Shown: positions 34,632 through 60,045, numbered from the stretch's first letter. The stretch is DNA of 64,000 nt from a virus (IMGVR_UViG_3300024261_000026:1909-65908), one strand, 5' to 3'. Numbers and translations: made by a program. Notes: generated from the letters alone by a model not told the origin.

Positions 34632-34908
34632 AGTTTTTACAGGAACTTTTCAGAAAAAGAATAATGATACAAGAAGCATGACATTTGTTAAACTAGAAGA
34701 TCTGCCAAAGGATTTTTTAGGATCAAAAGTCAAGAACGAAAACTCAACACGCACCCTTCCAGAAGGACTGGAGTTGGTGTGGGATATTGACAGTGCCGGA
34801 TTTCGCACCTTCAATTGGCAATCTGCCGTAGGCGATGTCAAGGTGGAAATCCTCAAGGGAAAAGAAAAAGACGATTTCGAAACAAAACACTTGACAGAGC
34901 AAAAGTGA
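34624..34908 (+). CDS. Small SH3/WYL-like beta-barrel protein (DUF2693-like)
   Basis: F.KK....R.M....  VWDID..GFR.FN motif. Confidence 0.55.
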   Translation: MVKVFTGTFQKKNNDTRSMTFVKLEDLPKDFLGSKVKNENSTRTLPEGLELVWDIDSAGFRTFNWQSAVGDVKVEILKGKEKDDFETKHLTEQK

Positions 34909-34919
34909 TCTGTTATAAT
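34891..34919 (+). promoter_or_regulatory. sigma70 promoter TTGACA-N17-TATAAT with palindromic operator in spacer
   Basis: Consensus -35/-10; ACAGAGCA-AAAG-TGATCTGT. Confidence 0.85.
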
Positions 34920-34950
34920 AAGCAAATCAACAACGAAAAGGAGTCATAAT

Positions 34951-35697
34951 ATGGCTATTGATATGAAAAAGATGAAAGCGAAATATAGTAACCTCAAGAA
35001 CCGTGCTGGTTCTGGTTCGAGTGGGTTTTGGAAACCCTCGGAGGGATCACAAACATTGCGTATTGTTCCCACTGAGGATGGAGATCCATTCAAGAGTTAC
35101 TCTTTCCACTATGGAGTAGGAAAGGAAAACGGATTTTTATGCCCAAACAAGAATTTTGGGGATGATTGTCCTGTGTGCAGTTTCGTTCGCGGACTGTATC
35201 AGGAAGGTGATGAAGAAAGTAAGGCAATGGCACGCCAACTAGGTGCCAAGTCTCGGTTCTTTTCTCCGGTGCTGGTTCGCGGAGAAGAGGATGCGGGAGT
35301 CCGAGTTTGGGGATTTTCCAAGACGGTGTATGAAACCTTATTGAATCTGGTTTTGAATCCTGATTATGGCGACATAACGGATACTGAGACTGGTATTGAT
35401 TTGGACATTCACTATGCGAAGCCACCAGGAGGTCAATTTCCTGTGACCAAGGTGACACCCAAGCGACGCTCTAGTGCCCTTTGTACTGATAAACTTACCG
35501 AGGAACAGTGCAAAGAGGTATTAAACAATGTGCCAGATTTTGAATCGCTCTTTGAGCGAAAGACGACATCTAATGTCCAAGGATATTTGGATGAGCATCT
35601 GGCGTCCGACAACCCTGAAGGTTTCTCTAGTGAAACGGAGAAATATTCGGGCGCAGGCAGAGTTGATAACGCCTTAGATGAATTAATGGGCGGATAA
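34951..35697 (+). CDS. Single-stranded DNA-binding protein (T4 gp32-like)
   Basis: FWKP..G...LRIVP, H..CP...G..CPVC zinc site, YGDITD...G.D; acidic C-terminus; precedes recA. Confidence 0.85.
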   Translation: MAIDMKKMKAKYSNLKNRAGSGSSGFWKPSEGSQTLRIVPTEDGDPFKSYSFHYGVGKENGFLCPNKNFGDDCPVCSFVRGLYQEGDEESKAMARQLGAKSRFFSPVLVRGEEDAGVRVWGFSKTVYETLLNLVLNPDYGDITDTETGIDLDIHYAKPPGGQFPVTKVTPKRRSSALCTDKLTEEQCKEVLNNVPDFESLFERKTTSNVQGYLDEHLASDNPEGFSSETEKYSGAGRVDNALDELMGG

Positions 35698-35705
35698 TCA
35701 TCATC

Positions 35706-35750
35706 AACCCACGGGGAGGCACAGGGTTATCGGGTGCCTCATTTTTCTTT
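35706..35750 (+). other. Structured intergenic RNA element: H-type pseudoknot or terminator hairpin
   Basis: GAGGCAC/GTGCCTC stem plus AACCC/GGGTT pairing, followed by ATTTTTCTTTT. Confidence 0.5.
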
Positions 35751-35762
35751 TGGGAGTCTATT

Positions 35763-36881
35763 ATGAAAAACAAGAAGAGTGGTAAACTCAGTATCGCCGA
35801 CATGCGTTCGCTGATTAACAAAAAAGCAGGAATGGTTGTCGCGCACGATTTGTCCTCCGAAAACCCAACAGAGGTTACGGATTGGATCCCCACTGGATCA
35901 ACTTGGTTGAACGCTATTATTTGCCGAGGGAAGATGGCAGGAATCCCTGTTGGCAAACTCACAGAGATTGCGGGGATGGAAGCGAGTGGCAAAAGTTATA
36001 TGGCCGCCCAGACTTGCGCGGAAGCACAGAAGATGGGAATTTCTGTGGTTTATTTTGATTCTGAATCTGCAATTGATCCGACATTTCTGACGAAGAGTGG
36101 TGTTGATATTGACAACATTCTATATGTTCAAGCTACGTCTGTTGAGTTTGTGTTGGAAACAGTTGAGACCCTTTTGACTTCGAGTGACGATAAATATCTT
36201 TTTGTGTGGGATTCTCTGGCGCTTACGCCAGCGATCAGTGACGTGGAGGGAACATTCAACCCGAATGAGTCCGTCGCCGTCAAGGCGCGGGTGCTGGCGA
36301 AAGGGATGTCTAAGTTGATAGTCTCCTTGGCAAACTCTCAGTCTACTCTTTTAGTCCTTAACCAACTTAAAACAAACCTCCAGGTTGTAAATCCAAAGTA
36401 TGCTACTGATAGCGAGAAGTATGTCTGCCCCGGCGGAAAGTCTATGGCATACGCCTATAGTCTTCGCATATGGTTGACCGGCAGGAAGGGCAAGAGTAGC
36501 ATGATACTCGACGACAAAGGATATAGGGTGGGGAACGAACTGAAGGCGAGACTAGAGAAATCTAGGTTCGGCACAGCAGGTAGGACTTGCAATTTTAAGA
36601 TTATGTGGGGAGAGGATATCGGAGTCAAAGACGAAGATAGTCTATTTGAGGCAATTCAGAGTTCTGACCACTTGGGCAGCGCAGGACCGTGGTGGACGCT
36701 CAAATATGAAGACGGCACAGCGCAGAAATTCCAAGCATCTAAATGGGGCGACTTTATGAAGGAGAAGAAATTTAACGACAGGGTTATGCAACTCCTAGAC
36801 GAGGAAGTGGTTCTCAAGTTTGACAAGAGACTGGTGGAGGCGAGTAACTTCTACGAGGAAGAGGAGGTCGAAGAAGCGTGA
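35763..36881 (+). CDS. recA: RecA/UvsX recombinase
   Basis: Walker A GMEASGKS, YFDSE.A, Walker B FVWDS, NQLK, PGGK...Y. Confidence 0.93.
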   Translation: MKNKKSGKLSIADMRSLINKKAGMVVAHDLSSENPTEVTDWIPTGSTWLNAIICRGKMAGIPVGKLTEIAGMEASGKSYMAAQTCAEAQKMGISVVYFDSESAIDPTFLTKSGVDIDNILYVQATSVEFVLETVETLLTSSDDKYLFVWDSLALTPAISDVEGTFNPNESVAVKARVLAKGMSKLIVSLANSQSTLLVLNQLKTNLQVVNPKYATDSEKYVCPGGKSMAYAYSLRIWLTGRKGKSSMILDDKGYRVGNELKARLEKSRFGTAGRTCNFKIMWGEDIGVKDEDSLFEAIQSSDHLGSAGPWWTLKYEDGTAQKFQASKWGDFMKEKKFNDRVMQLLDEEVVLKFDKRLVEASNFYEEEEVEEA

Positions 36882-37063
36882 GCACCGATAAGTCTCTTAG
36901 AGAGACAGTAAATATAGCACTAGATGCGGTGGAGAGACTTCTTGATGAAGTCTGGACGCTGCGAGATGCTCGTGTCAAGATGAAGAAGCAGATAAGAACT
37001 CTGCGAGATAAAATAAAGAGATTGGAAGAGAAGAATGACAAAAAAGAGGATGATGATAGTTGA
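36878..37063 (+). CDS. Small coiled-coil hypothetical protein
   Basis: GTGA coupling to recA, heptad pattern. Confidence 0.6.
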   Translation: MSTDKSLRETVNIALDAVERLLDEVWTLRDARVKMKKQIRTLRDKIKRLEEKNDKKEDDDS

Positions 37064-38009
37064 TGGCCATAATGCCTTCATCAGACACTACATCGTAAAC
37101 CCGACAATTTCCGCTAATGGGCAACCCATCGGCGGAATTGTTGGTTTTCTACAAGGACTCCAGAAACTTTCCAGGATGATCAAACCAGATATGATAACCG
37201 TGGTTTGGGATGGCGCCGGCGGCAGCAGGAAGCGAAGAAGCATCATCAAAGGATATAAAGAAGGAAGGAAACCCGTCAGACTTAATCGCTTCATACGGAA
37301 CCTGCCTGAGAACGAGGAGGCAGAAAACCTTATGTGGCAGCAAGTGAGAATTCTAGAGTATCTCAATGAAACTCCAGTTGTCCAGTTTATGTTTCCCGAA
37401 ACCGAAGCAGACGATGTTATTGCTTATGTCAGCACTTACCATCAGTTTGATGATTGGCAGAAGGTTGTCGTATCCAGTGATAAAGACTTCTTTCAGATCT
37501 GCGACGATTCGACAGTGCTGTACCGTCCTATTCAAGATGAGATAGTAAACAAGAACGCGATTGTGAAGAAATTCCTCATCCACCCCAATAATTTCGCTCT
37601 TGCTAGGGCACTAGCAGGAGACAAATCAGACAACTTGCCGGGTGTGCCGAGAGTTGGCCTTGCAACAGTAGCAAAGAGATTGCCTTTTCTTGCCGAGGAG
37701 AAAAGTTATATGACTTCGGAGTTGAAGGATTATTGCGAAGAAAGAAAGGACGAAAAGGTAAGATTTTATAGGGATGTCCTCGACAACATTGAACTGATCA
37801 GGATAAACTATAAGGTGATGCAATTATATTCTCCATCGCTATCCATACCGACATCATCAAAGATAAAGGAGACGTTCAGCAGTCACTTGCCTTTATTCAA
37901 CAACACCGGTGTCGTGAAACTGCTGTTCGAGGACGGATTTCCGCAGGTTAATTTAGACGAACTATATGCTTTGTTTCGAAAAATGATTTTTGAATCTAAA
38001 ACAAAATGA
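37035..38009 (+). CDS. 5'-3' exonuclease/flap endonuclease (Pol I N-terminal / T4 RNase H family)
   Basis: IVDGHN, VWDG, YK.GR, EADDVIA, SSDKDF.Q, GDKSDNLPGVPRVG. Confidence 0.92.
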   Translation: MTKKRMMIVDGHNAFIRHYIVNPTISANGQPIGGIVGFLQGLQKLSRMIKPDMITVVWDGAGGSRKRRSIIKGYKEGRKPVRLNRFIRNLPENEEAENLMWQQVRILEYLNETPVVQFMFPETEADDVIAYVSTYHQFDDWQKVVVSSDKDFFQICDDSTVLYRPIQDEIVNKNAIVKKFLIHPNNFALARALAGDKSDNLPGVPRVGLATVAKRLPFLAEEKSYMTSELKDYCEERKDEKVRFYRDVLDNIELIRINYKVMQLYSPSLSIPTSSKIKETFSSHLPLFNNTGVVKLLFEDGFPQVNLDELYALFRKMIFESKTK

Positions 38010-38038
38010 TTGACACGGGCACAAAAAAGATTTATTAT
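38010..38038 (+). promoter_or_regulatory. sigma70 promoter TTGACA-N17-TATTAT
   Basis: Intergenic, upstream of helicase. Confidence 0.75.
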
Positions 38039-38055
38039 GTGTCTGGGAGAAGCAT

Positions 38056-39432
38056 ATGGAACAAATGAGAGATGCGACATTCGGATCCTTCGGTAAAGGA
38101 TTTCAAGAGTCATTAGCAAAGATGATACTGGAAGACTCCAAGTTTTCGACGCAGATCGGGGAAGTCCTCGATATAAACTTTTTCGAATTAAAGTATTTGC
38201 AAGAATTCGTGAGAAAGATCTATTCTTACAAGAAGAAATACAAGAAGCACCCGTCAGCGAGCACTTATGAGAGCATCCTCAAGAGCGAAGACTCCTCCTC
38301 TCAAAGTGAGATTATAAGAAAGCAAGTCAGAGAATTCTATGTTCGCATCAAGACAGGCAACTATGATGATGTTGACGAGGAGTTTGTAAGGGATAAGTCT
38401 CTTGATTTCTGCCGTAAGCAAACTCTGCAAGGCGCCATGCTCAAGAGCGTCAAATTGATGCAAGATTCATCTTTCGACGAAGTGAGCAAGATCATCAATG
38501 AGGCGCTCAAACTCGGGGTGAATAATGACGTTGGATATGATTTCCTTGAGGACTTCGAGAGAAGGTATCAGTTGAGGTCTAGGAATCCGGTCACCACAGG
38601 GTGGGGCGAGATAGATAGAATCGTTGCAGGCGGTCTAGGGAAGGGAGAACTGGGTGTTGTGATAGCACCAACTGGCGTTGGCAAAAGTATGGTACTCACC
38701 CACTTAGGAACAGAGGCGCTCAAGCTTGGAAAGAATGTTGTGCATTACACTTTGGAACTCCAAGATGTCATCATAGGGAACAGATATGATAGTTGTCTCA
38801 CGGGCATCCCTATCAACGATCTGTACTTTAATAAGGAAGAGATATTCGAAGAAGTAAAGAAAGTTCCAGGGAAACTTTTGATAAAAGAATACCCTACCAA
38901 AAGTGCGACTACGCAGACTCTGAAAACTCACTTGGAGAAACTTAAGAATCGGGATTTTAGCCCCGATATGATTATTGTTGATTATGGAGATATTTTGAAA
39001 CCTATTTTCCACTCAAAAGAGAAAAGAGAAAATCTCGAAACTATTTATGAAGAGTTAAGGGCAATTGCACAAGAATTCGAGTGCCCGGTCTGGACCGCCT
39101 CTCAAACTAACAGGAGTGGGATAAACGCCGAAGTTATAACAATGGAATCAATTAGCGAGGCATTCTCGAAATGCTTTGTGGCTGACTTCATCTTCTCGGT
39201 GTCAAGAACAGGTTCGGATAAATCTAACAATACAGGTAGAATATATATTGCCAAGAATAGGAACGGCATCGATGGAGTGGTGTTTCCAATTTTTATGGAT
39301 CCTGGCAATGTTGAAATAAAAGTGTTCGCCCAAACAGAGATGACGGAAGAGTCCGGCGACAATGGTCCGAGGAAAGTCTATAGATTAATGAAAGAAGAGC
39401 AGAGAACCAAACAAACAACAAAAGGAGAGTAA
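38056..39432 (+). CDS. Replicative DNA helicase (DnaB/T4 gp41 family)
   Basis: Walker A APTGVGKS, YTLEL, IKEYPT, IIVDY, WTASQ.NR, K.R.G. Confidence 0.92.
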   Translation: MEQMRDATFGSFGKGFQESLAKMILEDSKFSTQIGEVLDINFFELKYLQEFVRKIYSYKKKYKKHPSASTYESILKSEDSSSQSEIIRKQVREFYVRIKTGNYDDVDEEFVRDKSLDFCRKQTLQGAMLKSVKLMQDSSFDEVSKIINEALKLGVNNDVGYDFLEDFERRYQLRSRNPVTTGWGEIDRIVAGGLGKGELGVVIAPTGVGKSMVLTHLGTEALKLGKNVVHYTLELQDVIIGNRYDSCLTGIPINDLYFNKEEIFEEVKKVPGKLLIKEYPTKSATTQTLKTHLEKLKNRDFSPDMIIVDYGDILKPIFHSKEKRENLETIYEELRAIAQEFECPVWTASQTNRSGINAEVITMESISEAFSKCFVADFIFSVSRTGSDKSNNTGRIYIAKNRNGIDGVVFPIFMDPGNVEIKVFAQTEMTEESGDNGPRKVYRLMKEEQRTKQTTKGE

Positions 39433-39438
39433 GAAAAC

Positions 39439-41307
39439 ATGCAAGAAACAATGGAACTATCAAGTAAAATTTTGAGTGATATTACAGTTTATATGAAATA
39501 TGCCAGGTATTTAGAGAAAGAAGAGAGAAGAGAAACCTGGGAAGAGTTAGTTACCAGAAACAAGCAGATGCACCAAAAGAAGTATCCTGATTTACACGAT
39601 AAGATTGAGGAAGCATATAAACTTGTTTATGAAAAAAAGATTTTGCCATCCATGAGATCCTTGCAGTTTAGTGGGAAACCCATTGAAATTTCTCCCAACC
39701 GAGTTTACAATTGCGCATACGCCCCTGTTGATGATTGGCGCGTGTTTAGTGAGATTCTTTTTTTGCTTCTGGGAGGCACGGGCGTGGGATATAGCGTGCA
39801 AACGCACCACGTAGAAAAGTTGCCAGAGATAAGAAAACCAAACCCCAACAAATCTAGGCGATACTTGGTCGGCGATAGCATAGAGGGGTGGGCAGACTCA
39901 GTTAAGGTGCTGATGAAATCTTATTTTCGGGGCACATCTACTATTGATTTTGATTTTAGCGACATTCGCGCCAAGGGCGCTATGTTGGTAACAAGCGGTG
40001 GCAAGGCGCCAGGACCAGAGCCGCTTAAGACGTGCCTTCGACAAATTAAGAGTATCTTGAACCACAAGGAAGACGGCGAACAATTGTCGTCAATCGAGGT
40101 TCACGATATTGTTTGTCATATTGCTGACGCTGTGCTTGCTGGTGGCATTCGCCGAGCGGCATTGATATCTTTGTTTTCCGCAGACGACGAAGAGATGATC
40201 TCTTGCAAGTATGGCAACTGGTTCGAACTAAACCCTCAACGCGGCCGCTCTAACAACAGTGCGGTTTTGCTGAGGCATAAAGTTGATGAAGAATTCTTTT
40301 TTAATCTATGGGAAAAGATCCAGTTGAGCAATTCGGGGGAACCCGGCATCTACTTTTCTAATGATAAAGATTACGGCACAAACCCGTGCTGCGAGATAGC
40401 ATTGCGACCCTTTCAGTTTTGCAACTTGTGCGAAGTTAACGCCTCCACTATTGAGACACAAGAAGATCTGGAAAACCGCATTGGTGCAGCAACTCTCATT
40501 GGCACATTGCAGGCCGGATATACTAATTTCCATTATCTCCGCTCAGTGTGGCAAAAGACAACAGAGAAGGAGTCGTTGCTCGGAGTATCTTTGACGGGCA
40601 TCGCGTCTAACAAGATTCAGCACCTAGACATGAAAAAGGCAGCAAGATTTGCCAAAGAAAAGAACAAGGAGATCGCCAAACAGATCGGCGTAAATCTCGC
40701 ATCTCGCATTACAACTATTAAACCAGCGGGTACTACTTCTTTGGCTTTGGGGTGCTCTTCGGGCATCCATGCGTGGCATAGCAAGTATTATATTCGCAGA
40801 ATAAGAGTGGGAAAGAACGAAACCATCTATGGATATCTCGCAAAGAATCATCCAGAATTGATAGAGGATGAGTTTTTTCGCCCCCACGACACCGCCGTTA
40901 TATCAGTGCCACAGCGCGCCCCAGAGGGATCAACATTCCGAACCGAAAGTCCGCTGGATCTATTAGAGAGGATCAAGTGGTTTTCGAAGAATTGGATTAA
41001 ACCAGGCCACCGACGCGGGCAGAATACTCACAACATCTCTGCAACAATATCCATAAAGGAAGACGAGTGGGATGTTGTTGGGAAATGGATGTGGGATAAT
41101 CGAGGATGCTACAACGGCATATCCGCCCTCCCCTATGGCGGGGGTTCTTATGTCCAGGAACCATTCGAGGAGTGCTCAGAGGAGACCTATAACAAGATGA
41201 TGGAATCTCTGGTTGGCGTTGATCTTACTCAAGTGGTGGAGACAGAGGATAACACAGATTTACAGGGAGAACTCGCTTGTGCCGGCGGCGTGTGCGAGAT
41301 AAAATAA
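39439..41307 (+). CDS. nrdJ: Class II (adenosylcobalamin-dependent) ribonucleotide reductase
   Basis: RRETWEE, LPSMRSL, YNC, G.GVG.SV, RR.A.I, TNPCCEI, CNL.E, T.KP.GT.S, C-terminal ACAGGVCE; no small subunit gene nearby. Confidence 0.9.
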   Translation: MQETMELSSKILSDITVYMKYARYLEKEERRETWEELVTRNKQMHQKKYPDLHDKIEEAYKLVYEKKILPSMRSLQFSGKPIEISPNRVYNCAYAPVDDWRVFSEILFLLLGGTGVGYSVQTHHVEKLPEIRKPNPNKSRRYLVGDSIEGWADSVKVLMKSYFRGTSTIDFDFSDIRAKGAMLVTSGGKAPGPEPLKTCLRQIKSILNHKEDGEQLSSIEVHDIVCHIADAVLAGGIRRAALISLFSADDEEMISCKYGNWFELNPQRGRSNNSAVLLRHKVDEEFFFNLWEKIQLSNSGEPGIYFSNDKDYGTNPCCEIALRPFQFCNLCEVNASTIETQEDLENRIGAATLIGTLQAGYTNFHYLRSVWQKTTEKESLLGVSLTGIASNKIQHLDMKKAARFAKEKNKEIAKQIGVNLASRITTIKPAGTTSLALGCSSGIHAWHSKYYIRRIRVGKNETIYGYLAKNHPELIEDEFFRPHDTAVISVPQRAPEGSTFRTESPLDLLERIKWFSKNWIKPGHRRGQNTHNISATISIKEDEWDVVGKWMWDNRGCYNGISALPYGGGSYVQEPFEECSEETYNKMMESLVGVDLTQVVETEDNTDLQGELACAGGVCEIK

Positions 41308-41311
41308 AAGC

Positions 41312-41340
41312 TTGACAGAACAAAAATGATCTGTTAGGAT
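41312..41340 (+). promoter_or_regulatory. sigma70 promoter TTGACA-N17-TAGGAT with palindromic operator in spacer
   Basis: ACAGAACA-AAAA-TGATCTGT; extended -10. Confidence 0.75.
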
Positions 41341-41373
41341 AGATACGCATCTTAAATAAGAAGGAGAAAAGAG

Positions 41374-41649
41374 ATGACAAAGAGTAGTTTAAAGGTTGTT
41401 GAGTCGGCAGAAGTTAAAGAAGAAAAGATTGTTGATTACATCAAATCGTTGTCGGCCCTCGAAGAAGAGATGGAGCCCTACAAAGAGCAAAAGCGGGCAT
41501 TGAAGCAAAATTACATCGAGAACGGATGGCTCAGCAAAGAAGAGATCTCGGCGGCAGTTAAGGCATTTCGCCTGATGAAGAGCGAGGTTGACCTAGAGCA
41601 GATGAAGGATTTCTTTGATCTATATTCGAAGACGAAGGTGTGCGGGTGA
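41374..41649 (+). CDS. Small helical protein, possibly GapR/T4 DsbA-like DNA-binding protein
   Basis: 91 aa, YI..L..LEEE....KE....L.......G.LS.....AVK..RL pattern; AAGGAG SD. Confidence 0.5.
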   Translation: MTKSSLKVVESAEVKEEKIVDYIKSLSALEEEMEPYKEQKRALKQNYIENGWLSKEEISAAVKAFRLMKSEVDLEQMKDFFDLYSKTKVCG

Positions 41650-41921
41650 AGTATATACCATTTAACCGGCACTTGGTGCTAGAGGAGCATGACACTAATG
41701 AGGAGACTTCTGTTTCGAAGGTATTGGTACCTGACGACTATAAAAGCATTAAAGATCATGGTATTTATAGGATTGTGGGCAAGTCTCTGGACTGCTCTCC
41801 AGTATTTGCCACTGGTGCTAGAGTGGTTGTAGAAGAGTCGATGGTGAGAGCTATCGAGATGGGCGCCGAGAAAATATTTTTAATCCCAGAGAATTTCGTA
41901 CTTCTTTATGAGGACGGATGA
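41640..41921 (+). CDS. groES: GroES-like co-chaperonin
   Basis: PFNRHLVLE...SKVLVPD...G.YRIV...G.RVVV...FLIPE.FVL mirrors the Cpn10 pattern; about 93 aa. Confidence 0.6.
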   Translation: MRVKYIPFNRHLVLEEHDTNEETSVSKVLVPDDYKSIKDHGIYRIVGKSLDCSPVFATGARVVVEESMVRAIEMGAEKIFLIPENFVLLYEDG

Positions 41922-42724
41922 ATAAACAAATATATGAATATGAAAGAATAATAATTGGCGGATCCTTGGCATCATTACTGTATGGATATTATAATGGCAT
42001 ACCTGTAATATATTCGGTGCCAAGGATTCCACTTTTTTACGAGACAGATGGCGAAGGAAACAGCAAGCAGCATCTGTGGCAAAAGTTGTCATTCGAGATG
42101 TCGCTAGCTGGGTTGCTTCCCATGGGAAACAAAACAGAAAGTATGCGATCTGAGGGAGACACCCTCAAGGCGTTCACCGCCGGACCGGTTTATGGGGCAT
42201 TCAGGTTCGAAGATTTGATTGTGTTTGACGATACTGGTTTGGTGGGATGGGACGGAAACCTCAAGAAGAAAAAAGAGAGAATGGTCCTTGATTGGATTAA
42301 CGACAGAAAGAGTTCCCCTCACGATGTCAAGCACCTTGCGGGTTCGGACAATTTTGTGAGGGATATACATTTTTATCCCTCCGAAAGGATGGATGGCAAC
42401 CCGAAGAAAAAGAAAGATATTTTAGCGATATCTTACTTGACAGAGAAGCAACTATCGTCAACAGAATATACAGATGCCTATGTAAAATTTAAGGTTCTTG
42501 ATATGATGAAAGAGGCAGGAATACAAGGCATCAAAAATGGCACCGATGCTCGCACCGGGAAGATAAAGCGACTATCGATTAGGATTGAAACCGCAGAGAG
42601 AGAAGTATTCACTATTCCGATGGAACCATATGGCGAAGACGACCTCCTGAGAAAATACCGCGAGTCAAGACCAAGAAACAAGTATTCGGAGAAATTAAGA
42701 GAGTATCTCTGTGGAAAACACTAA
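41918..42724 (+). CDS. Hypothetical protein with degenerate N-terminal dinucleotide-binding (Rossmann-like) motif
   Basis: YERIIIGGSLASLLYGY...IPVI resembles YDVIIIGGG.AGL.AA. Confidence 0.5.
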   Translation: MNKQIYEYERIIIGGSLASLLYGYYNGIPVIYSVPRIPLFYETDGEGNSKQHLWQKLSFEMSLAGLLPMGNKTESMRSEGDTLKAFTAGPVYGAFRFEDLIVFDDTGLVGWDGNLKKKKERMVLDWINDRKSSPHDVKHLAGSDNFVRDIHFYPSERMDGNPKKKKDILAISYLTEKQLSSTEYTDAYVKFKVLDMMKEAGIQGIKNGTDARTGKIKRLSIRIETAEREVFTIPMEPYGEDDLLRKYRESRPRNKYSEKLREYLCGKH

Positions 42725-43652
42725 ACCCATACAAGACACGTCATATTTCACGCTGGCAGGTATCATACCAGTGGCAGGTCCACCATTGGATTTTAACTTC
42801 CCTTGGCACGATAGTTTGATGCCGATTGGGAATGACTACTTGGCAGTCGAGAGGAGCGTGTATGAGTGTGCAATGGCCGGATGCGAGAGTATCTGGATTG
42901 TGTGTCACAAGGAGATGCAGTCGCTAATCAGGCATCGAATCGGAGACTGGATCGTGGACCCGGTTTGGACTGCTGGCGGCCGCCACAAATATGGGTTTGC
43001 GTTCGGGTCAGAGCAAGAGAAAACCATTCCGATTTTCTATGTTCCTATTCACCCCAAAGATAGAGACAAGAGAGACTGCCTATCGTGGAGCGTTATCTAT
43101 GGTTCCATGCGAGCGTGGTCCCTTTCGAAGATCATAAGTAAGTGGGTTGTTCCTGATAGATATTATGTCTCGTTTCCATATGGAGTCCACAGCGTGAGTA
43201 GTTTGCGGAAGCACAGAAAAGCGATATCAGACAATAAGAAGAAATTTTATATCTCTCACCAAGGGAAGACAATAAAAGATGGCGAGTATCTTTCTTTTAC
43301 CTTTGATGCGGAGGATTGGAAAAAGTTCCGCAGAACCATCAGAGAAGACGGAACCGGAGTATATGAACCAGGGTCATATTTTGACGAAGAAGAGAACACA
43401 GTCAAGGGAAACAAACTTCCTATCGACGAGAGATACAGTGCTAAATACTTCTCGCTAGAGAAGGTCTTTGGCCAGATCGATATTAGTGATCAAACCTTGC
43501 TTGAGACTGAGAGATATTTTAATATAGATAACTGGGAAGGATATGCGACATACATGGGGAGCGAATACGCAAAGTATGTCGCAAAACCAAAGATGATCCT
43601 GAGATACCACGAGCATAATCCATTTGGAAAAGATGCAATAGAAGATATCTAG
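42711..43652 (+). CDS. Nucleotidyltransferase-like (sugar-phosphate NTP transferase fold) protein
   Basis: AGIIPVAG...LMPIG...AVERSV.EC..AGCESIWIV N-terminal pattern, lacking the usual G.GTR. Confidence 0.55.
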   Translation: MENTKPIQDTSYFTLAGIIPVAGPPLDFNFPWHDSLMPIGNDYLAVERSVYECAMAGCESIWIVCHKEMQSLIRHRIGDWIVDPVWTAGGRHKYGFAFGSEQEKTIPIFYVPIHPKDRDKRDCLSWSVIYGSMRAWSLSKIISKWVVPDRYYVSFPYGVHSVSSLRKHRKAISDNKKKFYISHQGKTIKDGEYLSFTFDAEDWKKFRRTIREDGTGVYEPGSYFDEEENTVKGNKLPIDERYSAKYFSLEKVFGQIDISDQTLLETERYFNIDNWEGYATYMGSEYAKYVAKPKMILRYHEHNPFGKDAIEDI

Positions 43653-43653
43653 A

Positions 43654-43662
43654 TCTATTTAT
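43654..43662 (+). promoter_or_regulatory. Putative late promoter motif TCTATTTAT
   Basis: Late-type motif within the replication region, upstream of ATG 43685. Confidence 0.6.
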
Positions 43663-43684
43663 AATAGCAATTGAGGAGAAAACT

Positions 43685-44392
43685 ATGAAAAAGATTATCA
43701 ACGAATGGCGGAACTTTACTACCTTGACTGAAGGTCGCTCATTGCCGCAAATCTTGCACACTCTTATGGGTGGCAGAGAAAGCATCCAAACTGTTGGCAT
43801 CTTAACGGCAGAGAACCCTAGGGGCGAACAGGCCTCAGCAGAGTTCAATAAAGAAGCGAACGATAAGTTGATGGGCGACTTGCGAGATATGAATCTCGGC
43901 TTCCGCCGCATTCGCGGTAGTTTTGGCAGCAAAGAAGATTCTCTTCTGGTTCCCAACATAACTCGCGAAGAAGTGGTTAAGTTTGGGAGAAAATATGATC
44001 AAGTTTCTGTTATTTGGGGGAGCAAGCAAGATGACGGCATGGTCTTTGAGTATATTGAATCTGCTGATGGCGAAACAAAGCAAAAGAGAAACGTAGTTCT
44101 CACGGGCGACGACGTTCAGTCGCGTGAAGATTTCTATTCTCAAGAGCCCAAAGGTCCAGAAGCGGAAGCGGGAAAATTCCTTGTGCCGTTCTTTGACGAT
44201 AAATATGAGATGCTAGATGAGGCAGAAGATCTCGATGAAAGATCAGAGACTGAAAAGGTTTATGCGGAAATCAACAAAAGAGTTGGAGAACTCCTAAGAG
44301 AAAACAAAACAGGAAAGTTCCGCTGGGAGCAGCGTGGAATGATCAAGCAACTAAAGAAGAAATTGGTATTGCCGAAGAAGATCTCTTCGTAA
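43685..44392 (+). CDS. DUF3293-like protein, possible internal head protein
   Basis: GILTAENP.G......N..AN..L..DL...G......G..G..E.S.LV...GRKYDQ.SVIW; N-terminal MKKIINEWR..LTEG. Confidence 0.6.
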   Translation: MKKIINEWRNFTTLTEGRSLPQILHTLMGGRESIQTVGILTAENPRGEQASAEFNKEANDKLMGDLRDMNLGFRRIRGSFGSKEDSLLVPNITREEVVKFGRKYDQVSVIWGSKQDDGMVFEYIESADGETKQKRNVVLTGDDVQSREDFYSQEPKGPEAEAGKFLVPFFDDKYEMLDEAEDLDERSETEKVYAEINKRVGELLRENKTGKFRWEQRGMIKQLKKKLVLPKKISS

Positions 44393-44424
44393 ATCAAGCA
44401 CTTATAAAAAACACAACAAATACC

Positions 44425-44453
44425 TTGACAAGATATGGGTGATCTGCTATAAT
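44425..44453 (+). promoter_or_regulatory. sigma70 promoter TTGACA-N17-TATAAT with GTGATCTG half-site
   Basis: Consensus -35/-10 upstream of dnaE. Confidence 0.85.
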
Positions 44454-44487
44454 GCACATCGAACCTTAAATGACAGGAAAATCTACC

Positions 44488-50086: not shown

Positions 50087-50566
50087 ATGGACAAACACAC
50101 AAAAAAGGTGATGTTTAGCAGCAAAGATATGAGTTGGGAAACTCCGCAGGATTTCTTCGACAAGCTAGATCGAGATTTTAACTTTGACTTAGATCCGTGC
50201 GCGACAAAAGAAACTGCGAAGTGTAAGGATTATTACACAGAAGAAGACGATGGGTTATCTAAGGATTGGGGTCCGTGCAAGACAGTCTTCGTAAACCCCC
50301 CTTATGGTAGGGATATCAAAAAGTGGATTAAGAAAGGATACGAAGAGGCGCAGAAGGACAAGACTACTGTCGTGATGCTTATACCAGCAAGAACTGACAC
50401 TTCTTATTGGCACGAATACTGCATGAAGGCATCTCAGATTTTCTTCGTGAAGGGCAGATTAAAGTTTGGTACCGCCACGACTGGCGCTCCATTTCCTTCT
50501 GCTGTGGTGGTTTTCAAGTGGTATTCGGGAGGTGAAACTCCACAGATGGGTACCATTGACAGATAA
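50087..50566 (+). CDS. Phage DNA N6-adenine methyltransferase (T1/HP1 Dam-like family)
   Basis: W.TP..FF..L...F.FDLDPCA, DDGL..DW, NPPYG, V.LIPARTDT..WH, F..GRLKF, APFPS. Confidence 0.88.
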   Translation: MDKHTKKVMFSSKDMSWETPQDFFDKLDRDFNFDLDPCATKETAKCKDYYTEEDDGLSKDWGPCKTVFVNPPYGRDIKKWIKKGYEEAQKDKTTVVMLIPARTDTSYWHEYCMKASQIFFVKGRLKFGTATTGAPFPSAVVVFKWYSGGETPQMGTIDR

Positions 50567-50583: not shown

Positions 50584-51213
50584 ATGTACAAAGGAATCTT
50601 TTACCCTGTCTTCGCTTTGGTGGTTTTTGTATTTATCGCCATAGGGTGCCTATCACTCAACAGCGACATTCCGGATAAAAGAGAAAGCAATTGTACTTCT
50701 AAGAACGAGCTAACGAGAATACCAGGGTGGAAATATTCTTACCAGATAGAGTCAGACTGCAACATACCTAATCCAGGCGATGTCTCTCTTGCTTTGCAAG
50801 TGTTTTACATAAATTGGTACCAACGGTTCGGAGATCCTGCTGACGCTGTTTTGAATAACCTCAACAACATCGTGGTTGAGTGGAGAGCAAAAAAGATATA
50901 TTTCGAGCGTGGATACAGAGTGGACGGAACTTTCATCGAAAATGGGCAAGCAATCGGACTAACTATCGACAAATCTCACATCATTGTGATGATGAGTAGG
51001 TACCAGAAGATATATGACACTTCTCTGGCTCACGAATTGGTTCATGCTTCGATACGCGCCACAACCGGGCAAAGAGGAGATCCGGATCACGAGGGTGACA
51101 AATATAGCGGATGGACAAAACAACACACATCTCTTATTAAAGAGATAAACGAGATTCTTAGATTAATGGATTTAAATTATGCCGAAGAAAATAAAAAGGG
51201 TTACGAATTCTAA
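50584..51213 (+). CDS. Membrane-anchored putative zinc metallopeptidase
   Basis: N-terminal hydrophobic helix; LAHELVH (HExxH) with downstream His (DPDH). Confidence 0.6.
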   Translation: MYKGIFYPVFALVVFVFIAIGCLSLNSDIPDKRESNCTSKNELTRIPGWKYSYQIESDCNIPNPGDVSLALQVFYINWYQRFGDPADAVLNNLNNIVVEWRAKKIYFERGYRVDGTFIENGQAIGLTIDKSHIIVMMSRYQKIYDTSLAHELVHASIRATTGQRGDPDHEGDKYSGWTKQHTSLIKEINEILRLMDLNYAEENKKGYEF

Positions 51214-51436: not shown

Positions 51437-52071
51437 GAAGAAGAGATATGAGAAATGTGAATGAATACTGGGGGACCGGCCCACACGCTGAGGATGATCC
51501 ATATAATGGACCAGAAAGCAGCGAAAACCAGGTATCGGTGGCCAACAATAGGATATACTTCTATTCAGAAGTGACACGACCAGAGTGCTTGACATTCAAT
51601 AAGAGCGTCCAGGTGTTATCCGATGCGATGGTGGCGACAGCACACAACTACGGAGTGCCAGTCCCGCCAATAAACATGCATATCAACTCTTATGGTGGCA
51701 GTGTGTTCGCTGGACTATCGTCGGTTGATAGCATCCTTGCCGCACCGTGTCCTACCCACTCTATTGTCGAGGGGTGCGCCGCATCTGCCGCTACCATTAT
51801 GAGTGTGGTGGCCAATAAGAGATCTATACGAGAGAACTCGTTTATGTTGATACACCAGTTGTCTTCTGGGATGTGGGGTAAGTATGAGGAACTAAAAGAT
51901 GATATGAGGAATAACGAAGTGCTTATGAGTACGATTAAATCAATCTACACAAAGCACACCCAAATTCCCAAGAAGCAACTTTCCGACATTCTCAAGCACG
52001 ATCTATGGTTTGATGCAAAGACATGTCTGGAGTATGGTCTAGTTGATGAGATACTGAGTTTAGGCAAGTGA
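51433..52071 (+). CDS. clpP: ClpP-family serine protease
   Basis: INSYGGSV.AG, G.AASAAT (Ser), MLIHQ (His), HD.W..A...LEYGLVDEI; GGAGGAG SD before ATG 51433. Confidence 0.9.
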   Translation: MRRRDMRNVNEYWGTGPHAEDDPYNGPESSENQVSVANNRIYFYSEVTRPECLTFNKSVQVLSDAMVATAHNYGVPVPPINMHINSYGGSVFAGLSSVDSILAAPCPTHSIVEGCAASAATIMSVVANKRSIRENSFMLIHQLSSGMWGKYEELKDDMRNNEVLMSTIKSIYTKHTQIPKKQLSDILKHDLWFDAKTCLEYGLVDEILSLGK

Positions 52072-52370
52072 TTATTGGGTTTGAAGACACGGACACCACT
52101 TATGCCAATCTGCTAATCAAGTTGAAACACGAGGGAATCACAAAGCGGCAGTTTTTTAGGGGCGTTGTCGCATCTTTTCTGGAAGACGATCCTAGTTTCA
52201 TAGAATACATAATAGATTTCAAGAAAAGAAAAAACCTTTATGTAAAAAACAAGCAGAAAACACTTGACAAAGAGAGAAAAGTGTCTCATAATATAGAGAA
52301 GAAGTTTAGACTATCAGAAGACGAGATTGAAGATATGTTTGATATGCTTGAAGAGGAGATGGATTTATGA
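52068..52370 (+). CDS. Hypothetical protein (possible small DNA-binding protein)
   Basis: GTGA coupling to clpP; 100 aa, acidic C-terminus. Confidence 0.65.
   Translation: MIIGFEDTDTTYANLLIKLKHEGITKRQFFRGVVASFLEDDPSFIEYIIDFKKRKNLYVKNKQKTLDKERKVSHNIEKKFRLSEDEIEDMFDMLEEEMDL
52264..52292 (+). promoter_or_regulatory. sigma70 promoter TTGACA-N17-CATAAT inside upstream gene
   Basis: Perfect -35 and spacing, about 75 nt before the sigma region-4 gene. Confidence 0.55.
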
Positions 52371-52606
52371 AGGAGTGTGCCAGTAAGTGCATGAGTGCTG
52401 ACACAGCGTGCGAAAAGATGGATTGCCGAATGTGGGTGGATCACGAGGAAGAGTATAATTGCGCACTGGTGTCCATCCAGAGGAATGGCGATATGACTTT
52501 GCATGAGGTTGCTGACAGGATGAAGATTAGTTATGTAAGAGTGAAACAGATTCAAGATAAGGCGCTGGAAAAGGTAGGCAAAAGATTGGTTGCTATGGAG
52601 AAATGA
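52367..52606 (+). CDS. Stand-alone sigma70 region-4 HTH protein with Cys-rich N-terminus
   Basis: MTLHEVADRMKISYVRVKQIQDKALEK matches TL.EVG....V(T/S)RERIRQIE..AL.KL; five Cys upstream. Confidence 0.8.
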   Translation: MKECASKCMSADTACEKMDCRMWVDHEEEYNCALVSIQRNGDMTLHEVADRMKISYVRVKQIQDKALEKVGKRLVAMEK

Positions 52607-55573: not shown

Positions 55574-55602
55574 TTGACAACCACATAAGATGCGAGTATA
55601 AT
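55574..55602 (+). promoter_or_regulatory. sigma70 promoter TTGACA-N17-TATAAT, followed by inverted operator half-site
   Basis: Consensus promoter; AACAGATCACTTT at 55605-55617. Confidence 0.85.
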
Positions 55603-55633
55603 AGAACAGATCACTTTATTGATCGGAGGAACA

Positions 55634-56548
55634 ATGTCAGATCCACACAAAAGATGGAAAGACTACGATAAAGAACATTGCTGGCAGTATCAGATGAGAG
55701 AGGATAATCTCGGGGAAGATCTTCAAAATCTCCCTCCGTGGGTTGATTATAGAGAATTATCCACAAAAGATTTCGATTTTGAATATGTGGACAAATCGGA
55801 AAAAGAGAAGTGCGATGAGATTCGTGATTTTATAAAGAAGCATGAGTGGCTAGGTAAACTACCAAATAGACCTACTCATCGATTTACTGCTCGCCTCAAG
55901 GAAGGAAGCATCCTCGCTGGCGTTATTATTATGGCAGTGCCGAATACATTTTCCCATTTGCTCGGGAAAGAAAACAGCAACCTTGAAAAACTAATCTCTC
56001 GTGGTGCATGCATTAGTTGGTCACCTAAGAATCTTGGATCGTGGCTGATAATGAAGTCTGTCAAGTGGATGGTTCAAAATACCGAGTTTAGGTATTTCAC
56101 GGCATACTCCGATCCGGAAGCGAAAGAACTTGGAACGATCTATCAGGCGTGTAATTTCCTTTACCTAGGTAAGGGCGCAGGAGTGACAAAGCAATACTTT
56201 GATCCGAACAATCCCAAACAAGGGTGGTTTAGCGGGAGAGAGTTCAGAAAGAAATCAAAGTATTACAGATACGCCCAGGAGGTAGGCATCAGCAAGGAGC
56301 AATGGGCAAAGTGGATGAAGAAGTATAGCCCAGATTGGAATCTTGTGCCGACAATGGCGAAAAGTATGGTCAAGGAAAGAGAAAGAATATATCGAGATAG
56401 TTGCCATGTTCGAGAGGTAGTTTCGAAGCACAAATATGTCTATATTCTCGGGAAAAGCAAGAAAGAGACAAAAAAGTTGAAACAAATCTTTAAAGAAAAG
56501 AACCCAAAATTGTATGATATGTCATACCCCGCTCATCGCGGGGAATAA
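55634..56548 (+). CDS. Mom-family GNAT-fold DNA adenine-modifying enzyme
   Basis: FI.KHEWLG, L.GVI....P, ISR, KN.GSWLI, AYSDP...E.GTIYQACNFLYLG, K.KY.Y; GGAGG SD. Confidence 0.75.
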   Translation: MSDPHKRWKDYDKEHCWQYQMREDNLGEDLQNLPPWVDYRELSTKDFDFEYVDKSEKEKCDEIRDFIKKHEWLGKLPNRPTHRFTARLKEGSILAGVIIMAVPNTFSHLLGKENSNLEKLISRGACISWSPKNLGSWLIMKSVKWMVQNTEFRYFTAYSDPEAKELGTIYQACNFLYLGKGAGVTKQYFDPNNPKQGWFSGREFRKKSKYYRYAQEVGISKEQWAKWMKKYSPDWNLVPTMAKSMVKERERIYRDSCHVREVVSKHKYVYILGKSKKETKKLKQIFKEKNPKLYDMSYPAHRGE

Positions 56549-58473: not shown

Positions 58474-58493
58474 TCCAATGGAGGTATAGATTT

Positions 58494-58829
58494 ATGAATT
58501 CAAGTTCAGGTGTGAAGATTTCGTTTACGACAATTCTGGAAGATATCCCAAGAGAAGTTCAGGCGATGATCGACAATGTGCGCAAGAGAATGCGAGAGAT
58601 CGAAGATATTTCGCTGTTGGGCATATCCGACTCACTGGAGAGTTCTGGGAAAGTGAGAGATTGCAACGAAGCAATCGTCGTATTAGACTCGGCCAGAAAG
58701 GAATTATCAAAGATTGACGCGAGGATGGAGGATTGCATGAGCATCCTTCACCAATATTGTAACGTCACCATTCCCGACGCAGAACCGGAAGAGACTGACT
58801 CTCAAGAGGAGAGGGATGAAGAAGGGTGA
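58494..58829 (+). CDS. Hypothetical helical protein
   Basis: GGAGG SD before ATG 58494. Confidence 0.7.
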   Translation: MNSSSGVKISFTTILEDIPREVQAMIDNVRKRMREIEDISLLGISDSLESSGKVRDCNEAIVVLDSARKELSKIDARMEDCMSILHQYCNVTIPDAEPEETDSQEERDEEG

Positions 58830-59073
58830 TCTAGTACATATTCCGTCAAATGTTTTGCTTGTTGATAAGTTCCTTGCGCCAGGTAAATACAGATTCACTA
58901 CCAAGCCGGAAGTGGGTATTTTTATTGAAAGCGGCGACGAATTGAAATATTGCCGAGCATTTGTTTTGGGAAAAGTCTGGAGAATAGAAAGGGAGTGTAT
59001 GTTTGAATTTGCAACGGGAGGAAAAGATGTTGGTGAGATTAGTAGAAGTAAGATGGGAAACAACAACAAATAA
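58816..59073 (+). CDS. Small SH3/KOW-like hypothetical protein
   Basis: MKKGDLVHI start; overlapping operon arrangement. Confidence 0.55.
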   Translation: MKKGDLVHIPSNVLLVDKFLAPGKYRFTTKPEVGIFIESGDELKYCRAFVLGKVWRIERECMFEFATGGKDVGEISRSKMGNNNK

Positions 59074-59311
59074 GCATGAGATGAAAGAGGTATATGTCAA
59101 CCCAGAGAATGTGGTAAGCGTGAGACTCGACGAAGAAACAAATCAGATGCTCAAAGAGGGCGCACTTCCTTGGGATCTCCATCGGGGACAAACTTTCTCG
59201 CTGGTGACAATACAGTCTGGGGCGAAACCGAAAGACATCACGGTGGTAGGATCTCCATCGCAGATTGTGGAGAAATGTTACGCCTCAAAGACAAGACTTT
59301 TGAAAGGGTAA
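59027..59311 (+). CDS. Hypothetical protein, weakly FlbD-like
   Basis: GGAGG SD; LVRL..V...VYVNP..VVSV...I.VVGS...I.EK. Confidence 0.55.
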   Translation: MLVRLVEVRWETTTNKHEMKEVYVNPENVVSVRLDEETNQMLKEGALPWDLHRGQTFSLVTIQSGAKPKDITVVGSPSQIVEKCYASKTRLLKG

Positions 59312-59312
59312 G

Positions 59313-59579
59313 ATGATGACGGTGTTTGATTTTTTCCACCTTTTTATAAAGGTGGATTGCCCTTATTGTAAAGACGCAGTAGATTTGCTAGAAAAGATGG
59401 AATCACAATATGTGATCACAGTTGTGGACAAGGCAGAAAACTATCTTCAGATGGTGAAGCACCAATTTGGGCACCAAACAGTCCCGGTGGTCTTAAACTG
59501 TGACAGCAGGGGCAAAATGGATCTTATTGGCGGATATACCGAACTTGAAGCGCATTTAAATAAAAGCAGGAAGAAGTGA
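59313..59579 (+). CDS. Glutaredoxin
   Basis: CPYC, TVP, IGGYTEL motifs. Confidence 0.88.
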   Translation: MMTVFDFFHLFIKVDCPYCKDAVDLLEKMESQYVITVVDKAENYLQMVKHQFGHQTVPVVLNCDSRGKMDLIGGYTELEAHLNKSRKK

Positions 59580-59582
59580 ACT

Positions 59583-59972
59583 ATGGAAATTTCGTGCAAG
59601 TGGAAACCGATTGATGAATATATTCTAGCAGATAGCGGAGAAAAAAAGGAAGGCAGGTATCACGGGTCGATGTTCTGGAATATTAAAGGATTCGGGAGTA
59701 AGCGATGGGTTGTTGCAGGTTACCTAGATGTGCCCGACTGTCAACAATATTTGGATGAGGGCATCTCAGAGAGGGAAATGGTGGAGTGTTGCTTGGCCCA
59801 CCTAAATCAACCTCCCCCCAGAAGGAAATTCCAAAGAAAGCAGCCAAACTCTCTATATGGGCATTTGGAATATTACAAGCACAAGATCACGCCAGATGGT
59901 ATTGAAGTTCTGGTGATCACAAATGAAAGAAAGAATAGTCGGTTTTGGTCAGAAGGCACCGCAATTTCATAG
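59583..59972 (+). CDS. Hypothetical protein
   Basis: 129 aa ORF tightly packed in operon. Confidence 0.7.
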   Translation: MEISCKWKPIDEYILADSGEKKEGRYHGSMFWNIKGFGSKRWVVAGYLDVPDCQQYLDEGISEREMVECCLAHLNQPPPRRKFQRKQPNSLYGHLEYYKHKITPDGIEVLVITNERKNSRFWSEGTAIS

Positions 59973-59997
59973 AAAACAAAAAACATTGAGAAATAGC

Positions 59998-60045
59998 TTG
60001 ACAGATTAAATGTGATCTGTTATAATGTGATCTGTTGGCAGATCA
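59998..60045 (+). promoter_or_regulatory. sigma70 promoter TTGACA-N17-TATAAT carrying four operator half-sites
   Basis: ttgACAGATTA-AATG-TGATCTGT-tataat-GTGATCTGT-tgg-CAGATCA. Confidence 0.88.

Follow-up and report, generated by a model that had tools for sequence, protein, structure and literature searches.

What is the GATC-containing element that lies in the spacer of several strong sigma70-type promoters of the virus record IMGVR_UViG_3300024261_000026, and what could read it? The record is linear and 65,908 bases long, of which 64,000 were analysed (the window, whose positions are used throughout). A first reading, made from the sequence alone and called here the sequence-only reading, had seen at three of these promoters an imperfect palindrome of 20 base pairs, had taken it for the binding site of a dimeric regulator that defines a phage regulon, and had considered a methylation-sensitive switch. 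The comparison with related contigs gives a finding that is more general than that and an anatomy that is different, with a one-sided box and an optional, weak inverted partner. The GATC box is a real, lineage-specific promoter class in uncultured marine T4-like phages, and the role favoured for it, tentatively, is that of an operator.

The GATC box and its promoters

A scan of the window for sequences like TTGACA-N16-18-TATAAT yields about a dozen strong sigma70-type candidates, all of them on the plus strand between 32 and 63 kilobases, and in four of these, at 34891, 41312, 44425 and 59998, the sequence (A/G)TGATCTG(T/C) immediately abuts the -10 hexamer. The motif sequences quoted by the sequence-only reading are all found where it had placed them, and the other consensus promoters that it named as free of the motif (32316, 38010, 52264 and 62922) do lack it. 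The promoter of the operon for the gp32-like SSB and RecA (34891-34919, plus strand) has its -35 hexamer TTGACA at 34891-34896, followed by ACAGAGCA-AAAG-TGATCTGT, with the box AAAGTGATCTGT at 34902-34913 and the -10 hexamer TATAAT at 34914-34919. The promoter of the 41374/Cpn10-like operon (41312-41340, plus strand) has TTGACA at 41312-41317, then ACAGAACA-AAAA-TGATCTGT, with the box AAAATGATCTGT at 41323-41334 and a weak -10 hexamer, TAGGAT, at 41335-41340; the label of a groES-like operon is borne out in so far as the Cpn10-like gene is the second one of this operon (41640-41921), but the match is weak (E 0.006). The third promoter (59998-60026, plus strand) combines TTGACA at 59998-60003 with ACAGATTA-AATG-TGATCTGT, in which the box AATGTGATCTGT lies at 60009-60020, and TATAAT at 60021-60026, and it precedes an orphan gene for 638 amino acids (60071-61987) whose product has no match in Pfam, PHROG or NCBIfam, which leaves its designation as a MORC-nuclease unsupported. 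At the dnaE promoter (44425-44453, plus strand), finally, the right half stands alone, as had been claimed: TTGACA at 44425-44430 is followed by GGGTGATCTGC at 44437-44447, which has neither the A-tract nor the left half, and by TATAAT at 44448-44453.

The case for the box rests on its position and not on its count, because the window-wide excess of the bare 8-mer TGATCTGT is mild (8 against 3.19 expected, with 8 attained in one shuffle out of 100), the 7-mer TGATCTG shows no excess there (16 against 12.8 expected) and GATC is common (345 in 65,908 bases). Relatives were collected with the SSB protein as query, which led to 69 related IMG/VR loci with identities from 98% to 44%, and 15 relatives were fetched nearly or wholly complete (G001-G006, G008-G015 and G018), which together with the window record make 16 contigs. 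A motif scan with positional statistics, the check that the sequence-only reading had itself proposed, places the enrichment beyond chance: in the six closest genomes, 12 of 57 distinct strong promoters have a GATC whose first base lies at +16, counted from the first T of the -35 hexamer, with about 0.26 expected from a background of 0.0046 per position, and the spacer hexamer enriched most is TGATCT (14 against 0.37 expected). If TTGACA-N9-TGATC-N-G-N is used as the anchor in the 16 contigs and no -10 hexamer is demanded, TAnnnT follows in register in all 29 distinct instances, 15 of them with a perfect TATAAT, as compared with 28 of 44 for a control anchor made of TTGACA and the general TRTG element. 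Every occurrence of the anchor thus belongs to a promoter, and many of these promoters match the consensus in full. With the (A/G)TGATC box counted on either strand between 0 and +55, between 36% and 62% of the promoters carry it in G000-G003, G005, G009, G011, G012 and G018, against about 5% expected; the corresponding counts elsewhere are 0 of 13 in G006, 0 of 17 in G008, 4 of 21 in G010 and 1 of 9 in G004.

Outside the lineage the pattern carries no such signal. In 185,579 prokaryotic species, each represented by one genome, TTGACA-N9-TGATCTG-N-TATAAT has 56 hits, mostly in gut Clostridia and without the A-tract, whereas 74 hits are counted for the permuted control TAGTCTG, in organisms of the same kinds, so that there is no enrichment in cellular promoters, and no taxon stands out. 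The same scan of bacterial genomes gives no clue to the host, as the hits in gut Clostridia stay at the level of the permuted control. In IMG/VR, 61 hits of the box pattern are found against 55 of the control, and about 21 of the 61 belong to this lineage, often with several per contig, as opposed to none of the 55 control hits in contigs identified as this lineage. Since the permuted control is equally frequent outside the lineage, the box is not a general property of sigma70 promoters. The sequence-only reading was therefore right that these promoters form a class of their own and that a spacer element with GATC distinguishes it; the element is beyond chance and is also kept in the orthologous ssb promoters of relatives.

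A one-sided box and its spread among relatives

Across the 16 related marine phage contigs, the consensus of the class is the one-sided box AAA-R-TGATC-T-G-N abutting the -10 hexamer. In the logo set of 19 distinct class promoters, which were picked by GATC at spacer positions 11-14, positions 6-8 are A in 16, 18 and 15 promoters, position 9 is A or G, T10 is present in 18, T15 in 17 and G16 in all 19, and position 17 is mostly T or C; positions 1-5 are variable. As the box abuts the -10 hexamer, its last TG, which stands in register with that hexamer, doubles as an extended -10. The ten distinct orthologous ssb promoters show the same division, as they have in common only the -35 hexamer, AAAgTGATCTG and all but one of the six -10 bases, with GAGCA, TAAGC, TAAGA or AATGA as the left spacer and a diverging leader.

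This anatomy bears on the proposal that the full 20 base pairs, ACAGATCA-N4-TGATCTGT, are contacted by one symmetric dimer or by a dimer of dimers, and that the left half is degenerate because it is also the -35 region. In three of the four class promoters of the window, the left half matches at 4 of the 5 positions that are not fixed by the -35 hexamer, a match to GATCA of at least 4 of 5 is found in 4 of the 19 class promoters against 4 of 181 others, spacer position 1 is G in 8 of 19 against 14% in the others, the symmetric ACAGA...TCTGT recurs in three promoters of G009, and the dyad would be centred on the conserved A-tract. However, the left half is not conserved in the ssb orthologues (TAAGC, AATGA), 12 of the 19 class promoters match it at no more than 2 of 5 positions, dnaE has none, and copies in G009 that are shifted by two base pairs alter the spacing of the half-sites. 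As a conserved unit the palindrome therefore fails, with a right part that is nearly invariant and a left part that is not, and binding of the complete palindrome is unlikely. What is observed is a near-palindromic left half above chance that is limited to this phage and to close relatives, the cases being the three window promoters, the G012 counterpart of the promoter at 59998, and ACAGA...TCTGT in G009.

Downstream of the box at 59998, further copies follow. A second direct copy of AATGTGATCTGT lies at 60024-60035 (plus strand), 15 base pairs past the first and overlapping the end of the -10 hexamer; it looks like a tandem duplication, and gtgatctgtt after the -10 hexamer is also present in L198, the nearest relative. 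An inverted partial copy at 60039-60045 (minus strand, CAGATCA on the plus strand) makes TGATCTG-N4-CAGATCA together with 60028-60034. This opposite-sense palindrome (60028-60045) is lost in L198, which also speaks against the symmetric site, and as the inverted copy is not conserved there, its role is doubtful.

The mom-like gene and groEL are preceded by a consensus promoter without a box in its spacer (55574-55602, plus strand; -35 at 55574-55579, -10 at 55597-55602). Here the full box is reversed: AACAGATCACTTT on the plus strand at 55605-55617 (the box itself being on the minus strand) lies 3 nucleotides past the -10 hexamer, around the transcription start, and is the exact reverse complement of 34902-34914 (the 13-mer AAAGTGATCTGTT), as had been stated. 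It is among the six reverse copies counted over the promoters of the lineage, and its counterpart in G001 is partly kept as GATCACTTAA. A TGATCGG at 55620-55626 (plus strand) stands beside the ribosome-binding site of the mom/groEL leader and is probably conserved as a part of the leader and not as a box (it reads CTGATCGGAGG in G001 and, lacking GATC, GATATCGGAGG in G006). The groEL gene of G001 is driven directly by the same promoter and leader (window 55574-56548, G001 51533-51467), from which it follows that the mom-like gene has been inserted behind a groEL promoter. In the window, the genes driven by the box are thus SSB-RecA, the 41374/Cpn10-like operon, DnaE and the 638-amino-acid orphan, with mom-groEL under a reverse box.

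Among the relatives, the box is most constant at ssb, where it is kept in 10 distinct orthologous promoters, and it reaches far. G009, whose SSB is 48% identical and which in a tree of six concatenated replication proteins groups with G006, G008 and G010, apart from the close group of the window, has four canonical promoters of the form (G/A)AAT(C/T)AAAATGATCTG(T/G)-TA(T/A)AAT among its 10, and three further promoters with AATGATCTGTG(C/T) two bases farther from the -10 hexamer, two of which belong to the ssb operon and to the counterpart of the 41374/Cpn10-like operon. G018 (SSB 52% identical, same gene order) has nine box promoters, and in both G009 and G018 the flanks and the left spacer are wholly different from those of the window. 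In G006, G008 and G010, no box is found at the canonical position, and over the 16 contigs a single loss of the box can be inferred.

At other genes the membership is fluid. The box of the Cpn10-operon promoter is present only in the window, in G011 and, shifted by 2 base pairs, in G009, and it is absent in G001-G005; that of the dnaE promoter is present in the window and in G011 (AAAGTGATCTGC), absent in G001, and rearranged in G002, G003 and G012; and that of the promoter at 59998 is kept in L198 and G012, with the same promoter driving a tRNA, without GATC, in G002/G003. The expected conservation in orthologous promoters thus holds for ssb but not for dnaE, the groES-like operon and the promoter at 59998, the orthologues of which lack the box in several closer relatives, and of the regulon that had been proposed, the promoter class stands, whereas its composition varies, even if the ssb and the 41374/groES-like operons carry the box in both the window and the distant G009. 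Box promoters of G002/G003 precede cassettes whose first products look like DNA methyltransferases by their N-terminal motifs, and many box promoters of G009 and G018 precede runs of small genes with products of unknown kind.

In T4-type phages, copying of early promoters as cassettes by recombination has been described, and such mobility is frequently seen here as well, with promoters or leaders that are duplicated or that stand before unrelated genes (G011, G012, G002/G003, and the mom insertion). In G011 (L210/L211), the ssb promoter with its leader up to ATGGC is duplicated (11331 and 10185) around an inserted gene for 358 amino acids, which suggests gene insertion by recombination between promoter cassettes, and G012 contains a near-identical promoter pair (1221 and 2792). 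It could thus be that the box has no function and was spread within and between phages by the copying of whole cassettes, as is also in line with the shared promoter before different genes in G002/G003 and with the sharp, nearly all-or-none motif. This is very unlikely, since the left spacers and flanks of the window, G009 and G018 are unrelated while AAA-R-TGATCTG is kept, a neutral sequence would not be expected to survive a divergence down to about 50% SSB identity, and the reverse copies cluster at one place.

Some relatives have promoter signatures of their own. In the box-less G006 (84962-95038), 7 of 21 strong promoters end with (T/A)TGA-GATAAT. The relatives L023-L048 (SSB at most 60% identical) have a different ssb promoter and a leader hairpin, CA(A/G)C(A/G)TGAGAGAGTTATCA(T/C)GTTGAC, about 30-70 nucleotides 5' of the SSB start, which may serve as a translational operator, as one does in T4 gene 32. 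Ten IMG/VR contigs whose kinship is not established (L194, L196, L201, L203, L209, L216, L225, L228, L230 and L232) share the promoter TTGACAAGTGAT(C/A/T)G(A/G)TGATCTGTTATAAT, in which GATC occurs once or twice and the -35 region is spanned by an inverted repeat, TCACTTGA...CAAGTGA.

What may read the box

The freedom of the box in position and strand is informative about its reader. Of the 27 forward copies (AA-N-TGATC) counted over 157 distinct promoters, 22 begin at +12 and the others once each at five further places, and the reverse box GATCA-N-TT occurs in 6 copies, all of them between +35 and +45 and nowhere else from -80 to +120; about 3.8 reverse copies would be expected spread over the 200 nucleotides, and the six that were found lie on or just past the start site. 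A mid-spacer box is present in the ssb promoters of L011, L012 and L015/L052 as well as in G005, and GATC has been lost from this mid-spacer branch of ssb promoters in L016 and L066-L068. G001 and G002 have TGATCTC directly after the -35 hexamer, and the promoter shared by G002 (2869) and G003 (76589), behind which different genes lie, contains four copies of AGATCA(C/T) distributed over the stretch that runs from its spacer up to the start codon. The box thus does not keep to a sole register and orientation, as an extended -10 element would, and because shifted, mid-spacer and reversed copies exist, it would be read by a separate DNA-binding protein rather than by a polymerase in fixed register.

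A promoter-strength element, read by the host RNA polymerase or a phage-modified one as an enlarged extended -10 (a '-16 region') or as a spacer contact, would be at ease with the 22 copies fixed at +12 in one orientation and with the 3' TG that equals an extended -10. It is also in accord with the other promoters of the lineage, which have T-R-T-G where the box has TCTG (T 51%, R 74%, T 69%, G 66%), and with the weak -10 hexamers that accompany the box in G018. Such an element is nevertheless improbable, as the reverse copies lie past the -10 hexamer and other copies at other spacer positions, the pattern shows no excess over the permuted control in bacterial and archaeal species, and G006, G008 and G010 use the same kind of promoter without the box.

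The second component of the sequence-only reading, a phage Dam-type methyltransferase encoded nearby, is indeed there. The gene at 50087-50566 (plus strand) encodes a predicted N6-adenine DNA methyltransferase of 159 amino acids (PF05869 with E 1.5e-32; phrog_111; TIGR01712 with 100.5 bits, above the cut-off of 97.05). Homologues are found in 11 of the 11 box-bearing contigs that cover the region and also in the box-less G008, whereas G006 and G010 contain the flanking genes but no homologue, a distribution that is compatible with a link between Dam and the box and does not demonstrate it. GATC is the invariant core of the conserved element at these promoters, and the enzyme would methylate the box if its target is GATC.

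Methylation could then act without any separate binder, if the polymerase used a promoter differently as a direct consequence of Dam methylation at its GATC (about -19 to -16), so that parental (methylated) and new (hemi- or unmethylated) DNA were transcribed differently. GATC being invariant with T, C or G as the next base, the presence of Dam in every box-bearing contig that covers the region and its absence from the box-less G006 and G010, and the overlap of GATC with the -10 hexamer as TATGATC in 4 of 57 promoters would all suit such a direct effect, and the flanking A-tract could tune methylation, according to data on EcoDam, which belongs to a different family than the phage enzyme. We give this only a small chance, since conservation extends beyond GATC to the 5' AAA-R-T, reverse and shifted copies place the methyl groups elsewhere relative to the polymerase, and G008 has Dam and the highest density of GATC, yet none of its 17 promoters is boxed. 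A lineage-wide epigenetic timer is judged similarly doubtful: phage Dam would methylate the box GATC of the strongest promoters for early functions and replication, the methylation state would be read by RNA polymerase itself or by a factor that binds the box, and injected, replicating and packaged genomes would be transcribed differently, so that the early-to-late switch would be coupled to replication without factors of the MotA/AsiA type.

The reading that is favoured, with slightly less than an even chance of being right, is that the box is an operator for a separate DNA-binding factor, probably a repressor and possibly a methylation-sensitive one. From the box, its position, its enrichment and its conservation, which are observed, we infer that a sequence-specific DNA-binding protein, encoded by the phage or by the host, may bind the GATC box of these very strong promoters of the host sigma70 type. 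Bound between -35 and -10 or on the start site, this protein would hinder RNA polymerase and thereby repress, by which the phage could shut down or time a subset of its early and replication promoters. Binding may depend on the methylation state of the DNA, because the core of the box is GATC and a Dam-type methyltransferase is encoded. An activator is not needed at the box promoters, since the core promoters are already at or near consensus. In two seawater metatranscriptome runs, assembled contigs identical to ssb (35211-35707) have depths of 27.5 and 21, against 2.7-13.8 for other pieces, which hints at strong expression of this box-driven gene, with the qualification that these are assembled contigs in which DNA carry-over is possible and start sites are not visible.

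Several observations weigh against the operator. Most promoters hold a single, non-palindromic copy, which is unusual for a classical dimeric repressor, and the one dominant position and orientation is what would be expected of a contact with RNA polymerase. The -10 hexamers behind the box in G018 are weak (TAAGAT, TAAACT and TAGACT), which would be in keeping with a positively acting element as well. The motif is remarkably sharp and nearly all-or-none, with 27 exact copies, 5 with one mismatch and 10 with two; cassette copying could partly cause this, probably together with selection. In close relatives, the orthologous promoters are often without the box, and in G004 it is found at only one promoter. 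To these is added the outcome of the search for a binder, as the window proteins contain none that could be assigned: Pfam, PHROG and NCBIfam name only one protein with a helix-turn-helix, and a candidate at 52068-52370 had to be given up.

The dimeric regulator that had been proposed is accordingly not among the proteins identified, and no cognate repressor gene was recognised among the 58 window proteins scanned, which represent a fragment of a genome estimated at about 180 kilobases. The one helix-turn-helix protein, of 79 amino acids (52367-52606, plus strand), has a Cys-rich N-terminus and a helix-turn-helix like that of sigma70 region 4.2; it is present in all relatives examined, including the box-less ones, and may be part of the phage transcription apparatus. 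A consensus-like promoter at 52264-52292 (plus strand), located inside the coding sequence 52068-52370 and conserved in G002-G005 and G012, would drive its gene. The product of 52068-52370 (100 amino acids) had come into consideration because tblastn suggested its absence from the box-less G006, G008 and G010 and its N-terminus resembles a strand-helix-helix. A profile search, however, detects a homologue in each of them at the corresponding place (E 3.5e-16, 1.8e-13 and 7.4e-08), and thus there is no phyletic signal. As a ribbon-helix-helix protein it is not convincing either: the putative strand is acidic, the AlphaFold2 monomer is poor (predicted local distance difference test score, pLDDT, 58.6), neither a profile search of the PDB nor Pfam gives a ribbon-helix-helix hit, and the leads from the ESM Atlas are weak (RHH_1 in 33% of one cluster at 0.90; NikA-like at 0.88). 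The product of 50584-51213 (209 amino acids) was rejected as a binder for its membrane anchor and HExxH motif. As to known regulatory sites, judged by eye, the partner half of a CRP/FNR site would fall on the -10 hexamer, where there is no match, and the LexA, CIRCE, NrdR and DnaA boxes are unlike the GATC box.

Genomic setting and known systems

The window is about one third of the genome by estimate, as related IMG/VR contigs of 64-100 kilobases are rated 35-55% complete, so that the full genome is probably near 180 kilobases. The 10-kilobase stretch searched (34600-44590) is present in many seawater metagenomes, with DNA runs that contain 60-98% of its sampled words, and no close cultured phage was found, the best match of the SSB being Microcystis phage Mel-JY01 with 33% and the DnaE being less than 30% identical to those of Streptomyces phages. 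With the exception of four short open reading frames picked on the minus strand, all long open reading frames of the window are on the plus strand. The first half contains structural genes of the T4 type (the Gp23 major capsid protein at 14408-16084, the tail sheath, a gp19-like tube and a T4 baseplate protein), and the second half contains, among others, genes for replication and nucleotide metabolism (a family-A polymerase fragment, the gp32-like SSB, RecA, a 5'-3' exonuclease, DnaB, ribonucleotide reductase, DnaE and dUTPase) as well as those for the Dam-type methyltransferase, ClpP, the 79-amino-acid sigma70-region-4-like protein, the Mom-like protein, GroEL, glutaredoxin and Hsp20. Two polymerases are thus encoded, the family-A fragment (PF00476) at 32404-33792 and a full DnaE-type polymerase III alpha subunit at 44470-47922, which is an unusual combination in a phage with T4-like structural genes. 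A homologue of ribosomal protein S21 is encoded at 286-489 (plus strand; PF01165, E 5.4e-08), and a single open reading frame for 3,227 amino acids (1075-10758, plus strand) lies 5' of the T4-like capsid and tail genes, with a Kelch-type repeat as its sole recognised feature.

How early and middle transcription is ordered in T4-like phages without MotA and AsiA is poorly understood, and a box that is set in the core of as many as half of the sigma70-type promoters and is conserved among relatives whose proteins are about 50% identical is a concrete handle on this. It predicts a regulator to be sought and a candidate set of co-regulated genes, namely SSB-RecA, DnaE, chaperonin genes and variable methyltransferase cassettes, and with a Dam site as its core it offers a testable case of phage-encoded methylation that acts on the phage's own promoters. 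Should the box be only a signature of strong promoters, it would still be useful for the annotation of promoters and early genes in this group. Full-text literature searches gave no published description of such a box, which, as the papers were judged mostly from their abstracts, is weak evidence that it is unpublished.

Among known systems, the closest with respect to methylation are the mom gene of phage Mu, which is regulated by OxyR, and likewise agn43 of E. coli and gtr of P22, in which at least three GATCs lie in an OxyR site upstream of or over the promoter and the host regulator is needed. The likeness consists in GATC within a conserved, promoter-linked element and in the availability of Dam, and one target here is even a mom-like gene. 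The differences are that there is usually one GATC here, in a one-sided spacer box of 12 base pairs (clusters are limited to the promoter at 59998, with three, and to the G002/G003 cassette, with four), that Dam is encoded by the phage, that many promoters are concerned, and that the phage is T4-like and of the lytic type; no OxyR-like site was seen at the box promoters, though no search aimed at one was made. In IS10 pIN and dnaA P2, GATC overlaps the promoter hexamers without further flanking conservation, and the activity follows the methylation state. They share with the box promoters a GATC in the core promoter, by which transcription is coupled there to replication or methylation, but here GATC is in the spacer within a larger conserved box, and only a minority has TATGATC.

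As an operator, the box invites comparison with that of the P22 Arc repressor, a true dyad between -35 and -10 of Pant that is bound by two dimers. An operator that fills the spacer of a strong sigma70 promoter and blocks the polymerase would be common to both, and the dyad of 20 base pairs seen here, with the centres of its half-sites about 12 base pairs apart, has a similar layout; unlike in Pant, two-fold symmetry is not kept, given the varying left half of the ssb promoters, and the window proteins include neither a ribbon-helix-helix protein nor another repressor that can be assigned. The Omega repressor of plasmid pSM19035 recognises WATCACW heptads, of which two or more contiguous ones are needed. 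It resembles the present case in its short, non-palindromic unit containing ATCAC that is arranged directly or inverted over promoters, the reverse box here being AGATCAC(T), and it differs in that the copies here are mostly single and non-contiguous and that no omega-like protein was found among the window proteins.

The middle promoters of T4, finally, have a MotA box that replaces the -35 hexamer and acts positively through AsiA and MotA; Pfam names no MotA or AsiA domain in the scanned proteins. In both cases a T4-like phage marks a class of promoters by an additional short box combined with a sigma70 -10 hexamer, and in both cases cassettes move before variable genes, but in the promoters described here the -35 hexamer is a perfect TTGACA and the box lies 3' of it.

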